Of a DNA stretch of 21,426 nucleotides, positions 9,297 to 21,349 are shown in pieces. Both the position numbers and the translations under genes were made by a program. The notes below the pieces were generated by a model, which saw nothing but the letters and a program-made list of their open reading frames with translations, had not been told where the DNA came from and did no database searches. The stretch comes from Escherichia coli (GTDB taxonomy: Bacteria; Pseudomonadota; Gammaproteobacteria; Enterobacterales; Enterobacteriaceae): NCBI RefSeq assembly GCF_003334765.1, contig NZ_QOWT01000047.1; one strand, given 5' to 3'. The first letter of the stretch is position 1. Each line of letters starts with the position of its first letter.

Positions 9297-9707
9297 TTAC
9301 CAGGAGCCGCGGCTCCTTTGCGTATCCTTTTATGTCTCCTCACCGTCTGGTCGGTGTTTTGCTGAGACTTCTAACTTCCTGTTTTTGTTGGTGTTGTCCT
9401 TACACCGTCCAATCATGATTGGTGGGCTGGCGTCCCTGTAAATAACTATTCATGACATTGATTTTTAGGTTTATTTTAAATTTATATGTGGTCCTAAAAA
9501 GGAACCATAAATCTTAACGGTATGAGTTCTCACGAATAGCCGATTTGCAAATTGTATCAAAAGACAACAAATTTCTCAGTTCAACTCCCTATTGGTAACT
9601 GAACTCATAGATAAGGTCCGTTATGCTTTTCATAGGTAGACGAATACGGTAACTTTTCTCAATAGCACGATTCTATCCGCAGTACCAGCATAGGTGGAGA
9701 ATGGATT

Positions 9708-10553
9708 TTGAACAATTGGTCACCAGAGCATACAAAAGTCATCAAGAGCTGGTTTAAGATTGATACATATCGCAAATTTGAAGACCTCTCATTGATTCAG
9801 TTCTACCATGAGATATGGGCCCGTAAATTGTTCTTTAAGGAGTATCGGGAAGAGTTTGAGAGCAGAGCACTTGCGGGTTACTTCTCAAAAATTTTTAGTG
9901 GCAATCCTTTTTTAATTGAAGAAGGACAACTGGGATACATGACTCCTGCCAACAAACTTTTTCAACCTCCCCATTTCTTTCTCACAACTCTTGATCGCCT
10001 TGCTGAAACGAGCATTATTGCAATGCAACGTGGAGGTTTTCTTTGGCATGAAGGTGATAATTATTCTATAAACGCAGAGCTTCGAGAAGAATCACTTTCA
10101 GACATTATGCCAGATCAGTTTACACGAACGATCATGTTCGAGATTGATCTGGCAAGTGGCACAGACGAAGAGATTGCAGAGTCGCTTAAAGCTGCATTAC
10201 CGCAGTGGCGTAAAGTTAAGGGTATTGATGAAAACCCATTGGAATCTGTTCGTTTTGGATACGGAACTATCAAGAAACTCATCAGTTATCGTGTAATACC
10301 TATGCTTGATATCCTGGTGTGGGCAGCCGTTAAAAAAATCCGTGTCTCTGACGACAGGTTATCCAGACTACTATATACAGACGATGACGAAGAAAGCGAA
10401 ATGAGACAGTCCAGCCAAATCAAAGATACCGACAGGCCTTTGGCTCTTAAATCCTGCACAACTGACTTTATCCGACAATTCCATTACTTCATGAACAAAA
10501 ACAGCCATTTAAAGCAAATGAAAGTCTCTGATGTAATGAAACTATCGGATTAA
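9708..10553 (+). CDS. Hypothetical island protein (281 aa); possibly inovirus Gp2-like family
   Basis: Long ORF starting at TTG 9708 with GGTGGAG RBS about 8 nt upstream; no in-frame ATG until about codon 78. Positioned immediately upstream of an AlpA-family gene. Family assignment is from recall only. Confidence 0.55.
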   Translation: MNNWSPEHTKVIKSWFKIDTYRKFEDLSLIQFYHEIWARKLFFKEYREEFESRALAGYFSKIFSGNPFLIEEGQLGYMTPANKLFQPPHFFLTTLDRLAETSIIAMQRGGFLWHEGDNYSINAELREESLSDIMPDQFTRTIMFEIDLASGTDEEIAESLKAALPQWRKVKGIDENPLESVRFGYGTIKKLISYRVIPMLDILVWAAVKKIRVSDDRLSRLLYTDDDEESEMRQSSQIKDTDRPLALKSCTTDFIRQFHYFMNKNSHLKQMKVSDVMKLSD

Positions 10554-10597
10554 GAGTTAATTAATAACTGTCTGTTTTTTTATTATAAAAATAAACT

Positions 10598-10628
10598 AAA
10601 AGCACTACTGTAAATGGTGCTTTTTTTT
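10598..10628 (+). terminator. Rho-independent terminator candidate
   Basis: AAAGCAC-(loop)-GTGCTTT hairpin followed by a run of 8 T, 45 nt after the stop of 9708-10553. Confidence 0.5.
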
Positions 10629-10835
10629 GCGATTTTTACTTTAAACCGGCCATTTTTACACTTGCTATAAAACAGGGGAATTTCAGCTACTCTCAAGTTC
10701 CCTTGTTCTGTACTGCACCAACTTCGAGAAAACCATCCTGCACAGCAGCGAAGAACCTCCGCTTCAGGAGCTTCGCTCCTTTCTTTTCCCAACTGCTCGT
10801 ATAGTGACTTCACCGCAACGACAAGGGATAACGAA

Positions 10836-11042
10836 ATGAAAAATCAAGCAACCCGCCTCATACGCTTACCAGAAGTTCTCGAACGAACTGGCTACGGAAA
10901 AGCCTGGATCTATCGTCTGATCAACGATGGCAAGTTTCCTGCTCCTGTCAAAATTGGAAGTCGTGCAATAGCTTTCGTTGAAAGTGAGATTGATAGCTGG
11001 ATTCAGTCTGTTATCGAAACAAGTCGAAATAATGTTGCTTAA
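10836..11042 (+). CDS. alpA: AlpA-family phage/island transcriptional regulator (MerR-like HTH, 68 aa)
   Basis: MKNQATRLIRLPEVLERTGYGKAWIYRLINDGKFPAPVKIGSRAIAFVESEIDSWIQ matches the AlpA signature (LxRLxEVxxxTGxSxxxIYRLIxxGxFPxPxKxGxRAxAWxESEIxxWI). AAGGGA RBS 8 nt upstream of ATG. Confidence 0.85.
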   Translation: MKNQATRLIRLPEVLERTGYGKAWIYRLINDGKFPAPVKIGSRAIAFVESEIDSWIQSVIETSRNNVA

Positions 11043-11062
11043 TTGAATTTAGGAGAGATTTT

Positions 11063-18650: not shown

Positions 18651-19091
18651 TTAAGCGGTCGTTTTGTGCCAGGTATTATTGTTGTATTCATATTCTTTTA
18701 TCTTAATGATCTCGTCATAGATCCGTGAAAAAGAAAACCATGAGATCTCTTTCACTTCGCCTTTTTTGTTTGTGTAAATGATATTGCAGCCACGAAAAGA
18801 AAATGACTGATAGAAAGTATCGTGATTCTCCTCTTTAAGAAAACGGGTAAAAGCTTTTATGGTGTCTTTTTTTTCCATGCTATAAGAGAAAAAGGTATGG
18901 ATAGCAAATATGGTCAGAATATTTCTTTCCGTCACCATATGTCTGGAAAAATAATTAAGATAAAAAACATGATCTTCAATGCTATTTTTACAGAATATTG
19001 AAAAGTGAGGGTTATACAGACGGTAGAGATCTGTATTCTTTTTTGTTTTAGATAGGTAACTTGTCAGGGTTGAATAGTTTTGTTTTTTCAT
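18651..19091 (-). CDS. Hypothetical protein (146 aa), first gene of the ankyrin operon
   Basis: AAGGAG RBS 8 nt upstream of ATG; stop lies 14 nt before the ankyrin start; Lys/Phe/Tyr-rich; no recognisable motif. Confidence 0.6.
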   Translation of the reverse strand: MKKQNYSTLTSYLSKTKKNTDLYRLYNPHFSIFCKNSIEDHVFYLNYFSRHMVTERNILTIFAIHTFFSYSMEKKDTIKAFTRFLKEENHDTFYQSFSFRGCNIIYTNKKGEVKEISWFSFSRIYDEIIKIKEYEYNNNTWHKTTA

Positions 19092-19672
19092 TTTTATTCT
19101 CCTTTATTATTTTGATGAAATGAATGTATATTATCAAATAAATAAAAATCAAATTTATTTTTAATAATAAAAAATAAGCAAGCGTTTTCTTTTGAATAAA
19201 CTAATTTAATGTGATGTTTTATATAAATAAATTCATAGTTTGCAAAAAGTGCTATTTTTATTTCATGGTTGATTGATGGGCGTTTTTCCCCATTGCTTAG
19301 GGGGAAATATATCCCATTAATATTAAATGTTTGAAGTGAATCGTATTTTAGCAGGGGAATATTATATCTTTTACTTCTGTTTTGATTTTCAACTTTGTGT
19401 GTGAGACACAATATGTGATAGTGTTGTGATAATCGTAAGTATCCTGCCAAAACGAATCATTCACTTTAAACCTTTACTGACATATTGGTTATATATTCTG
19501 AGAAATTTATAGTGCAAAAGGCTCGGTGTGCAGACTTACGCCAGCCCAATCAAGCCGTAGTGCTTTAGTTTTGGGGCTTAGGTATGGTGGAAAAAAGCGA
19601 CTCGTTAAGCTTACTGAGCTCTATGTATTTCAGGAGTCGGTCAGTAAGTTAACGATCCAAGAGGCTCATCAA

Positions 19673-20110
19673 TCATAAGAGATGTATCAATCTTGCGAGA
19701 CTCTCACGGATTTTATCGCCGTCATAAATAGCAATCTCTTCAATATTGTTACCAATGAAAGTTTCAGCTGCCTGGATGGCTATCAGTTCAGACATACCAA
19801 CGTTATCAGCCAGCTGGCGTGCTGCAATGACCTTGCTTTCAAGAGTTAGGATGACCGGCCTGTAGCCTGCGCGTTTGATTTTGATACAGTGTGAAATCAA
19901 TTTCTCCATAGGTGCGGTGGTCACTTGGAATGCAGTCGTACCCACCTGAAAGGCCCCTTCACGGTCAATGTGTGGATCATTAGCATTGGCCCTGCGACTA
20001 CTGATTTTAACATCTAGGGAAACGTAGCTGATGTTTGGCTTCGATAAGATTCTGTAGCACCGCCTCAGTGGGGTTGTCAGAACATTCCGCTGCCGCCTTA
20101 AGAATATCGC
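19673..20110 (-). pseudogene. Start-less ORF, probable gene remnant
   Basis: Minus-strand frame is open from the stop at 20111-20113 to 19673 (about 145 codons) but has no ATG/GTG/TTG start before the GTG at 19945. Sequence (…GYRPVILTLESKVIAARQLADNVGMSELIAIQAAETFIGN…) looks protein-like. Surrounding region 19950-20770 is GC-normal with no intact ORF. Confidence 0.3.
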
Positions 20111-20668
20111 TTACTAGAGATGAAACTGGTTGATTGTAATCCCGGTCGACCGTTACTCTATGTTTATCCGGATAATTTTGGCGTACACATTAAGTGAAGA
20201 AAACTTCAAAGTGATTTGAAACAGATGTTGTATTCACTGGCTCATTTACATTAACTTGAGTGTTGTTCAGCACATGTTGAAACGCAGCTGTAAGGAAGAT
20301 GATACAGCCAAGATGTATCCTTCATTATGGGGATTGGCGCGATGACCACCACGGCTTAGCCCGATTGATTATTTGGAAATTGATTAGAATGCATAATCTG
20401 GGCTGAGCTCACTTAAAGTCTCTAATGTTTGACTTGGAGATTTGGGGGGCAGTGGCTTTCAGTTTTGTTAACTCTAACATCTGGTTTACGTTCCTTTTGG
20501 AACAAGAAGCAGAGGTCTGCTAAGTAATGGTTGTACTGCTTGTGATAGGTATGACTGCATGTTCAGCGAGCAAGAATGGCTTAAAAGTTCTGTTACTGAG
20601 CACCCCATGAAGTTAGAACGATGTCATAACGTGCACGTAACCGTTGAACTGTTCTCTTACAGATAATC

Positions 20669-20707
20669 TCTACATAGCTATTATTGCTTAGGCGGTAGCT
20701 ATGTAGA
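20669..20707 (+). terminator. Perfect 12-bp inverted repeat hairpin followed by T-run (terminator or operator candidate)
   Basis: TCTACATAGCTA-(15 nt)-TAGCTATGTAGA followed by TGGTTTTTG; lies about 75 bp upstream of the NTPase start. Confidence 0.4.
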
Positions 20708-20784
20708 TGGTTTTTGTAATATTATATTAAAAGTTCATACAGCGACTATAGCATCATTGCGAAAAATATCAGGAGGTGAGTTTA

Positions 20785-21349
20785 ATGTTACGAAAAAGCA
20801 AACTTACAGAGATATATAAAAGGTTTGGTTTTACTGAAGAAAATACAGGTAACGAAAGTATTGCTGTATATTCTATTAAAACAGGGCACTACCATAACGC
20901 GGACATACTTCCACTAAATAATGAGGTTAATGTAAATCAAACCTTTGAAGAATATAGGCAGTTAGGTTATGCATGTCAAATTAAAAAATATCAGTCTTAT
21001 GAAGAAGCACATAAGGAATTATTTAATGGCTTCTTTAGCGTCGATTCAACTAAAGAAAGGTTGATTAAAGATTATAATACTTTCACAGATTCAATTGTAA
21101 AAATTCACTCACCTACTGCAACTTATTCCTACATAAATTCAAAATATTACTTAAATGGTGTTATTGGCGAAGCTAATGTTGTTACGGAAATATTAGAGAG
21201 AATACAACATAGGCGTCCAATTCTGTTTTTGATTGAGGCTGCAGCCGGTTTTGGAAAGACTTGCACGGCGTATGAATTATTGAGGGAGATTATAGTTAAC
21301 AATATAGGGAAAATACCATTATTTTCAGAACTATCAAGGAATAGGCAAG
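20785..21349 (+). pseudogene. P-loop NTPase gene (N-terminal unknown domain plus Walker A), 3'-truncated by IS5 insertion
   Basis: AGGAGG RBS 8 nt upstream of ATG 20785 (MLRKSKLTEIYKRFGF…). Walker A …PILFLIEAAAGFGKTCTAYEL… lies about 160 aa in. The reading frame runs straight into the IS5 terminal repeat at 21350 and the in-frame stop is IS-derived. Confidence 0.6.

Follow-up and report, generated by a model that had tools for sequence, protein, structure and literature searches.

Part of a probable integrative mobilizable element at the ssrA attachment site of Escherichia coli, with a plasmid-like replication and mobilization core

Integrative mobilizable elements (IMEs) that carry defence systems have already been catalogued at the transfer-messenger RNA (tmRNA) locus of Escherichia coli, hot spot #9 (PMC10121019), and the excision of the K-12 cryptic prophage CP4-57 deletes T357 of the tmRNA gene, ssrA, leaving a defective tmRNA (PMC10107115). 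Islands of the EARL type excise as well, and have an AlpA-like recombination directionality factor (RDF) near attR that binds both att regions (PMC6035254, PMC8844411); in the ROD21-like islands the RDF is accompanied by an "843-bp gene of unknown function" (PMC10763509, PMC6035254). The PIMEs excise, replicate by means of repA and an iteron-bearing oriV and are mobilized by IncP helpers; they are defined by an integrase, alpA, a replicase, trbJ and trbL occurring together, PIME1 having a luxR regulator in addition (bioRxiv 10.64898/2026.01.12.698999).

Here we consider a stretch of 21,426 nucleotides of E. coli DNA (contig NZ_QOWT01000047.1 of RefSeq assembly GCF_003334765.1; "the window" throughout), of which positions 9433-21349 ("the block") are very probably, from their sequence and that of their relatives, the attR-proximal 58% of an IME of ~20.4 kb at the ssrA attachment site. 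An earlier note, made from the letters of the window alone, had described an AT-rich accessory block that looked like an integrative mobilizable element or a captured plasmid, with its integration machinery missing or outside the window; that machinery is indeed found outside, where complete genomes with the same block have an integrase beside ssrA. Megablast placed the block on the E. coli chromosome: among 5426 complete genomes 316 gave some match, and 57 had 80% or more of the block, in each case on the chromosome and at 99.6-100% identity. In strain MRE162 (locus L001), window positions 78-21349 align at 99.6% identity (homology begins at 78), the annotation of the left part reading gab operon, ygaQ pseudogene, tRNA-Ile (ileY), ypjC/ypjB remnants, a pinH fragment and ypjA, and that of the part after the block NACHT, RelA/SpoT, an IS3 fragment (IS, insertion sequence), ParB, ParB, a large serine recombinase, a tyrosine integrase, ssrA and smpB. 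The window comes from the E. coli chromosome, from the ssrA-ileY hot spot that CP4-57 occupies in K-12. The MRE162 island ends at the 3' CCA of ssrA, for a total of ~20.4 kb with 11.9 kb inside the window, and in 56-57 of the 5426 genomes it extends to this length, as far as the P4-type integrase beside ssrA. Stable core synteny across related strains, which would have spoken against an insertion, is not what is seen: only 57 of the 5426 genomes have the block at full length, and in K-12 these repeats enclose another element.

9420 to 9432, minus strand: attR (psaA), a degenerate 13-nt repeat of the 3' end of ssrA, CGCCAGC-CCACCA on the ssrA strand, from the K-12 comparison
9433 to 9707, no strand: non-coding island-side arm by attR, absent from K-12

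The left end of the element could be fixed exactly. K-12 is annotated with a 14-nt pseudo-ssrA, psaA, which is the attR end of CP4-57 and lies 160 nt past the ypjA stop codon; the window copy is identical to it (L002 25973-25986), and homology between K-12 and the window breaks off exactly at this repeat. The copy lacks the T that matches T357 of ssrA, and because of this 1-nt deletion a blastn-short scan for ssrA-derived repeats gave no attR match, the direct comparison with K-12 being what revealed it; an 11-nt inverted match at ~9585-9595 was judged to be chance. A comparative alignment, as the earlier note had suggested, places the insertion boundaries at the psaA repeat on one side and at the 3' end of ssrA on the other. 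Its start coordinate, 9440, was within 8 bp of the true boundary without being exact, and its statement that no tRNA-derived direct repeat is visible has to be given up, since a tmRNA-derived 13-mer is present. The fall in composition that it had noticed at the start of the block is real, with GC content going from 0.49-0.50 to 0.38 at 9432/9433 (the ypjA segment, 4550-9259, is at 0.491, its 3' flank, 9260-9432, at 0.503 and the block at 0.383). Within the block the relaxase and mobC segment reaches 0.466, and the part of the window left of ypjA (78-4549, 0.365) is AT-rich too, so that ypjA is the GC-rich exception of the window. The island-side arm is presumably the region to which integrase and RDF bind, and a query covering the whole of 9433-11062 was 90% identical in the diverged ssrA island of E. 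coli E200086.

9708 to 10553, plus strand: DUF6387 protein, 281 amino acids (aa), next to attR (Pfam 3.8e-79)
10836 to 11042, plus strand: AlpA-family winged-helix protein (Pfam PF05930 2.2e-17; PHROG "excisionase and transcriptional regulator" 7.6e-11)

These two genes lie at the attR end of the element. The AlpA regulator call of the earlier note holds on the PF05930 match, the protein is 36% identical to AlpA of K-12, and it is probably an RDF and an activator of excision. The DUF6387 gene is the equivalent of the 843-bp gene of ROD21-like islands, according to the ICEKp258.2 gene table and the EARL description (PMC10763509, PMC6035254). At the other end, ~7 kb of sequence beyond the right end of the window, the P4-type tyrosine integrase adjoins ssrA in the complete genomes with the same block (NF007246 1.8e-133; 49% identical to IntA), which bears out the remark that the window has no integrase. 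Taken with attR at 9420-9432, the 3' end of ssrA serves as attL beside this integrase, so that an integrase and flanking att repeats are both found.

15842 to 17077, minus strand: HUH relaxase, 411 aa, MOBP-like (Pfam PF03432 2e-21)
17074 to 17481, minus strand: MobC-like relaxosome accessory protein, 135 aa, its stop overlapping the relaxase start

The relaxase identified in the earlier note stands on its PF03432 match and on an intact HxDx4HxH motif (HDDPDGQHIH, read in the translation); it matches NCBIfam TraI_MobP at 4.8e-14, under the curated cut-off of that model, and its N-terminal 250 aa are 43% identical to the relaxase of the IncQ2 plasmid pBRST7.6, which MOB-suite types as MOBP. The mobC call fares well on function, being supported by position and by its likeness to a protein annotated as MobC on pBRST7.6 (42% identity across 86 aa, E 9e-22), and less well on family membership, as the open reading frame (ORF) has no Pfam (MobC PF05713 included) or NCBIfam match. 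The gene adjoins the relaxase in 25 of 27 related loci. Genes for a type IV secretion system or a coupling protein are annotated nowhere among the 22 features of the MRE162 island and did not appear in family searches, so the element has a relaxase and neither mating-pair-formation nor coupling protein. As a separate observation, a perfect TGGCAC tandem repeat of 7.7 units (16199-16244) encodes a (Pro-Val)n linker of the relaxase; the length of this linker is variable, since the version in E. coli CX04 is shorter and imperfect.

17683 to 19091, minus strand: ankyrin-repeat protein (317 aa; Pfam Ank_2 4.2e-5) and 146-aa ORF (o146), an accessory pair by mobC
14598 to 15656, minus strand: three small envelope proteins, namely lipoproteins of 106 and 132 aa and a zinc-ribbon membrane protein of 91 aa, downstream of the relaxase
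14031 to 14456, plus strand: backbone ORF of 141 aa (o141; RefSeq), 44-93% conserved in the family
11575 to 12363, no strand: variable segment with two small ORFs (103 aa, plus; 101 aa, minus), present in L011 and L016, absent from L013
11063 to 11362, plus strand: backbone ORF of 99 aa (RefSeq), kept by AlpA in L013 (78%) and E200086
19260 to 19266, no strand: boundary between conserved module and variable cargo, the right limit of nucleotide homology with five other-genus loci, with the motif AAATAGCACTTTTTGC at the junction

That these genes belong together is argued by their order in other genera. A relaxase scan with one genome per species gave the 27 loci, in which gene order was mapped by tblastn, and the conserved order is o146, ankyrin, MobC, relaxase, 91-aa protein, two lipoproteins, o141, Rep-like gene, (small ORFs), AlpA and DUF6387. 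It is complete, at 53-97% amino acid identity, in Phytobacter, Pseudocitrobacter and Superficieibacter; it is kept from o146 up to the Rep-like gene in Citrobacter and up to the contig end in Kluyvera. The ankyrin/o146 order is kept in L011, L013, L016 and L018, and the envelope trio (lipobox-type signal sequences are readable in the lipoprotein translations, and some RefSeq records call one of the lipoproteins a "SEN1984 family lipoprotein") stays with the relaxase across genera. The 103-aa and 101-aa ORFs of the variable segment have no family matches. In Citrobacter, Salmonella diarizonae and E. coli CX04, moreover, the part from the Rep-like gene to mobC goes with another tyrosine integrase, which lies by mutS (ankyrin and o146 being kept there in Citrobacter and CX04, not in Salmonella), and in Pseudocitrobacter (L013) DUF6387 is followed by a third, P4-like integrase and tRNA-Leu. 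The core is found with at least three different integrases and sites, at ssrA, on the tRNA-Leu side (L013) and on the mutS side (CX04, Citrobacter, Salmonella). Since five other genera keep the gene order from o146 to DUF6387, and two further tyrosine integrases have the Rep-to-mobC part next to them, we read the block as a coherent IME and not as the random accretion that the earlier note had named as its refutation.

The same data feed an alternative, that a small plasmid with Rep and Mob genes, or an IME that later lost its integrase, recombined into an existing ssrA island, so that the ssrA integrase and the Rep/Mob block would be unrelated passengers. The occurrence of the Rep-Mob core with other integrases would fit this, as would the module of integrase, serine recombinase and two ParB genes that is ~97% identical in ~500 genomes without the block, the P4-like integrase of L013 directly by DUF6387 where the window has psaA only, and the limits of homology to other-genus loci (it starts at window 9726, 11500 or 12431 and has its common limit at 19260-19266, so that other-genus homology ends at 9726 and 19260-19266). 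We nevertheless consider it unlikely. The order integrase ... two-hairpin element (described below) ... mobC-relaxase is common to MRE162 and to the diverged ssrA islands of 2021CK-01361 and E200086, and in MRE162 and E200086 it runs on to AlpA-DUF6387 and attR with different cargo in between (2021CK-01361 has a recombinase cluster and IS1 in place of the attR end); an integrase at attL with RDF and 843-bp gene at attR is the normal ROD21-like layout, and no internal att copy was found. In both diverged islands the backbone order is kept and the cargo is other, one having SIR2, HigB and ImmA and the other an Hxs system and a TIGR04141 protein.

Some observations on these relatives stand apart from that argument. 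A nested multi-recombinase unit, with two tyrosine recombinase genes and a 1875-bp gene, replaces the Rep-like gene in 2021CK-01361 (L003 3377-6955) and E200086 (L038 22233-26603), and such units resemble the "genomic islands with three integrases" already described (PMC10121019). Phytobacter massiliensis (L011) and Pseudocitrobacter faecalis (L013) are 96.6% identical over 14.6 kb (positions 1-14647), a stretch that takes in, by the IME core, a bgl operon together with genes for a LysR regulator and a transporter, so the sugar-utilisation region may be island cargo; a reading of L013 as a compact IME of ~10.5 kb ending at the bgl operon was rejected, given this identity of L011 across bgl and the lack of any tRNA-Leu repeat found. 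Two Salmonella records, OX345049.1 and OX345050.1 (L005), gave the best protein matches (66-67%) and were not used as plasmid evidence: they are 3.6-kb linear contigs of a draft assembly, probably fragments of a chromosomal island of the same family.

12428 to 12991, minus strand: Rep-like winged-helix protein, 187 aa, with homologs on small plasmids and family-level RepL matches
13433 to 13566, no strand: three direct repeats at 49-bp spacing, core TGCGCGAAGCGTATTT (read on the minus strand), upstream of the Rep-like gene
13590 to 13830, no strand: GC-rich non-coding segment, strongly conserved, inside the AT-rich 1-kb intergenic region

The replication-like part of the block can be compared with plasmids. 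The ORF that the earlier note called RepL-like deserves the name at family level, as 7 of its 18 homologs reach E<=1e-3 against the RepL profile (best 2.7e-5) and three Yersinia homologs have a precomputed PF05732 match; the window protein itself does not, having no RepL (Pfam PF05732) match at E<=10 and only HTH_36 (0.002-0.02) and Phage_rep_O (0.02-0.4). Homologs of 44-48% identity reside on circular plasmids of 2.6-2.8 kb in Klebsiella, E. coli and Enterobacter. In both of the plasmids checked (n=2) four 22-bp iterons lie immediately upstream of the homolog, no ColE1-type RNA was found and Rfam was empty; in plasmid L006, the one checked for ORFs, the homolog is the sole substantial ORF. 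On these grounds the plasmid homologs are, by elimination, replication initiators, and the window protein is by its likeness to them probably one too. Its own upstream region is an AT-rich 1-kb intergenic region in which the 49-bp-spaced repeats lie (2-3 copies in close relatives), and these repeats are an iteron-like oriV candidate, a function that we infer. CGAAGC occurs in each of the three repeats and GCGAAGC in two; GCGAAGC forms an unusually stable DNA mini-hairpin, present in some phage replication origins. DnaA boxes and Rfam matches were absent from the Rep upstream region. The GC-rich segment is near-identical in CX04 and 84% identical in Superficieibacter (L015), where its flanks diverge; it has no Rfam match, and its fold z-scores (-0.85 and -1.6) are not significant. 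Together with the pBRST7.6-like relaxase and MobC, the small-plasmid likeness of the Rep-like protein supports the view that the block has plasmid-type mobilization and replication-like functions.

17580 to 17608, minus strand: palindrome with 13-nt arms, upstream of mobC, proposed as oriT in the earlier note
L001 33614-33712, minus strand: two-hairpin element in MRE162, ~2.6 kb past the window end
L038 31190-31273; L003 12065-12139; L004 30790-30878; L017 5839-5930: other copies of the two-hairpin element (profile matches)
L020-L030 and L037: two-hairpin element upstream of mobC

For the origin of transfer, the palindrome upstream of mobC exists at 17581-17607, with arms that are 92% complementary, yet it is no better as an oriT than as a terminator: by its score it would equally serve the ankyrin gene as an intrinsic terminator, CX04 and a Salmonella contig have hairpins of different sequence at its position, and no conserved nic-like motif follows it. 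The IncP-type nic consensus YATCCTGY was rejected as a locator, its 6 window matches being neither near mobC nor conserved at intergenic positions in relatives, and the mobC upstream regions of pBRST7.6 and the window share no k-mers. An element of ~90 nt with two hairpins is conserved directly upstream of the mobC promoter in distant relatives (Pantoea, Erwinia, Rahnella, Klebsiella michiganensis). A profile made of it finds no copy in the window and does find copies on the same side and strand in MRE162, E200086, 2021CK-01361, CX04 and Salmonella (nhmmer E 1e-15 to 1e-24); in the E. coli and Salmonella islands cargo separates the element from mobC. In a 15-sequence alignment the structure is 92.6% paired, against 35-64% with the partners slid, and there are compensatory changes at 4 pairs (13 cells), a covariation score that 0 of 500 shuffles reached. 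The element is present in 610 of the 5426 E. coli genomes, all matches being chromosomal and 29 of 30 sampled lying outside annotated features; it is in no PLSDB plasmid and has no Rfam family. On conservation and structure we rate it the better oriT candidate of the two. It is the end of a conserved integrase-serine recombinase-ParB-ParB module. Apart from this question, the large serine recombinase and the two ParB-like genes (L001 34416-37751) are always linked to the ssrA integrase, in ~500 other E. coli genomes, and the linkage persists even where the rest of the island has been lost, as in E. coli B derivatives.

If the parts work as their relatives suggest, the following course can be proposed. 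AlpA would act as directionality factor and/or activator, and the integrase would excise the island as a circle; with a crossover as in CP4-57, excision would leave ssrA with the T-less repeat and so impair tmRNA through a defective acceptor stem, an outcome expected because attR lacks the T matching T357. The Rep-like protein might maintain or amplify the circle from the repeat-bearing AT-rich 1-kb region, MobC and the MOBP-like relaxase would nick an oriT, and the DNA would leave by way of a type IV secretion system encoded on a conjugative plasmid in the same cell, since the island has none of its own. In the recipient the integrase would re-insert the island at ssrA, and over time cargo may have accumulated between the two-hairpin element and mobC. 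A bolder version, which we put forward tentatively and hold to be more doubtful than probable, is that the family has two undescribed cis-elements: a chromosome-only two-hairpin oriT of ~90 nt marking the insertion point of defence cargo, and a minimal replicon (a 187-aa winged-helix initiator with 49-bp-spaced GCGAAGC mini-hairpin repeats) that lets the excised island replicate, with each excision switching ribosome rescue. Were this true, the T357-less attR would mean that each excision switches the ribosome-rescue pathway and couples island mobility to host physiology.

Several points weigh against the reading as an IME with working parts. The window itself contains neither the integrase nor the attL site nor the stronger oriT candidate, and excision, replication and transfer of the island are all inferred. 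For the Rep-like protein itself neither RepL nor Rep3 gives a significant match, and its structure model (pLDDT 57, low confidence) matches only generic MarR-type winged helix-turn-helix proteins in a fold search; for these two reasons it could, as modelled, be a regulator instead (a PDB sequence search gave weak Cro matches only). The 49-bp repeats are not present in L017, the most distant relative checked, and such spacing is unusual for iterons. The two-hairpin element looks like an intrinsic terminator, its first stem being followed by a T-run, so that an insulating terminator is a rival reading of it, and the loci retrieved from the nearest relatives outside E. coli (L011-L016, L018) yielded no copy of it. 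The integrase of L013 adjoins DUF6387, whereas that of the ssrA islands is at the opposite end, from which it follows that module shuffling has occurred. In the sequenced strain, finally, the island is split by IS5 inside the NACHT gene.

1 to 77, no strand: terminal 77 nt of IS5 (transposase-start end) in the ygaQ pseudogene, 76/77 identical to K-12 IS5A 1119-1195; outside the island
19673 to 20129, minus strand: remnants of a DUF4928 type II restriction endonuclease (pseudogene; PADLOC REase_II 2.7e-51; a partial gene in RefSeq)
20785 to 21349, plus strand: 5' part of a NACHT NTPase gene (NA-iREase2 and Walker A), cut by IS5 in the source strain
21350 to 21426, no strand: second IS5 terminal 77 nt, inverted relative to the copy at 1-77, 76/77 identical to the reverse complement of K-12 IS5A; outside the island

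This disruption bears on the possibility that the block is an immobile relic, descended from an IME and now fixed and decaying, kept for its useful cargo or by neutrality. Besides the IS5 insertion, other E. coli lineages show decay of the island through IS1- or IS3-mediated deletions, the block has the restriction-gene remnant (no methyltransferase lies near it), relatives have the IS3 fragment past the window, and the 99.6-100% identity of full-length copies could reflect vertical descent within a small number of lineages. The ORFs for integrase, AlpA, MobC, relaxase and Rep-like protein are, however, full-length, with 78-97% amino acid identity in other genera, a sign that they have moved horizontally in recent times and been under purifying selection, and the same pair of repeats supports excision of CP4-57 in K-12 (PMC10107115). 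We regard a relic as a possibility to be taken seriously, though a doubtful one, and keep to the IME described above.

The small cargo genes that the earlier note had listed are indeed in the block; its end at 21349 is not the end of the island, being an IS5 junction within the NACHT gene. On the full-length MRE162 protein NA-iREase2 scores 3.2e-33 (Pfam), and in relatives a RelA/SpoT-domain partner is translationally coupled to NACHT past the window end (L001 30353-33363). The NACHT protein goes unrecognised by PADLOC, whose match to the partner is only a weak one (PDC-S33, E 8.4e-5); NACHT(NA-iREase2) and RelA/SpoT are possibly an uncatalogued defence pair, disrupted by IS5 in the source strain.

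The two IS5 ends also raise the idea of a composite transposon, in which the 21.3-kb segment between them moves as a unit. The same IS5 terminus is present, inverted, at both ends of the window, as this would predict; the segment nonetheless includes core chromosome (ygaQ, ileY, ypjA) in native order and at its native locus, the IS5 insertion in the NACHT gene is shared by no complete genome, and the ends, at 77 nt, have the look of k-mer overlaps left by an assembler at a repeat, so that we give this idea very little credit. That 77-nt length makes it probable that the window is a whole draft contig, bounded by such overlaps at IS5 repeats. Recombination between the two inverted copies could invert the 21.3-kb segment, a point separate from the origin of the island. 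Two features of the chromosomal flank are listed for completeness:

1569 to 1644, plus strand: ileY tRNA (anticodon CAU; ARAGORN and Rfam), annotated tRNA-Ile in MRE162 and K-12
4685 to 9259, plus strand: ypjA/ehaD autotransporter adhesin (RefSeq annotation of the matching locus), on the attR side, outside the island

The tRNA was the sole match of an Rfam scan of the window, and in K-12 ypjA is placed in the same way with respect to the CP4-57 attR.

What has already been described (IMEs at the tmRNA locus, the end architecture of ROD21-like islands, IMEs that replicate) is in no way overturned by these results. They add the exact attR, the location of the integrase, the IS5 truncation, the conservation of the core across genera, the downgrading of the palindrome and a structured element as candidate for oriT and cargo boundary. 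The picture is of an IME family in which a plasmid-like Rep/Mob core is linked to an integrase at one end and an RDF at the other, and in which phage-defence cargo is swapped, and of a tmRNA hot spot in which CP4-57, the ssrA IME and its cargo variants alternate between one pair of repeats. For annotation, DUF6387 with AlpA marks an attR end, and the two-hairpin element marks the boundary between integrase module and cargo in 610 complete genomes; for an oriT and an oriV that would be peculiar to integrative elements there are now testable candidates.

Among known systems, CP4-57 is the neighbour in place. It uses the same att pair (the 3' end of ssrA and psaA) and has a homologous integrase (49%) and AlpA (36%); beyond these two genes nothing is common to it and the island, since it lacks relaxase, MobC and Rep-like genes, and its alpA adjoins intA whereas the island alpA is at the far end from the integrase. 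This bears on whether the island might be a P4-like phage satellite or a cryptic prophage like CP4-57, moved by a helper phage rather than by conjugation. The shared att site and integrase family, the presence of AlpA and the frequency of P4-like satellites at the tmRNA hot spot (PMC10121019) would suit such an origin. The gene content is not that of a CP4-57-type prophage: PHROGs gave no phage, capsid, primase or packaging match, only the AlpA excisionase family and a family of unknown function (DUF6387), such genes are likewise missing from the island as annotated in RefSeq, and a relaxase and MobC operon is present, all of which makes a satellite highly improbable.

Plasmids resemble the core of the IME. 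The mobilization module of pBRST7.6 (IncQ-2-type) has a comparable relaxase and MobC, at the identities given above; the island modules are chromosomal and linked to an integrase, unlike those of pBRST7.6-type plasmids, and have no IncQ RepA/RepC. The iteron plasmids of 2.6-2.8 kb, with their related Rep proteins, have 4 x 22 bp repeats against 3 at 49-bp spacing in the island.

The PIMEs resemble the island in their modular int, alpA, replicase and repeat-bearing origin, in mobilization genes of MOBP type and in large defence cargo. They have RepA or RepC and TraJ, whereas the island has a 187-aa winged-helix protein akin to that of 2.7-kb plasmids and a MobC-like accessory; trbJ and trbL were found neither in the island annotation nor in family searches, which leaves the island outside the PIME definition, and a luxR regulator is absent also. 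The EARL/ROD21-like islands match in their ends and general build: a P4-like integrase by attL, an AlpA-type RDF and an ~843-bp DUF6387 gene last before attR (DUF6387 is the last gene of ICEKp258.2, as at the attR end in the window), a size of ~20-30 kb, AT-richness, a relaxase without a full type IV secretion system and variable defence-type cargo. They differ in their att site, an Asn-tRNA gene and not ssrA/psaA (PMC6035254), in having a MobA/MobL (MOBQ) relaxase and TraD where the island has a MOBP-like relaxase and MobC with no TraD annotated, and in their type IV pilin genes and H-NS homolog, the island having neither of these but a Rep-like gene. We therefore class the block as an IME integrated at ssrA, with EARL-like ends and a plasmid-like Rep/Mob core, a member of neither the EARL nor the PIME family that combines features of both.

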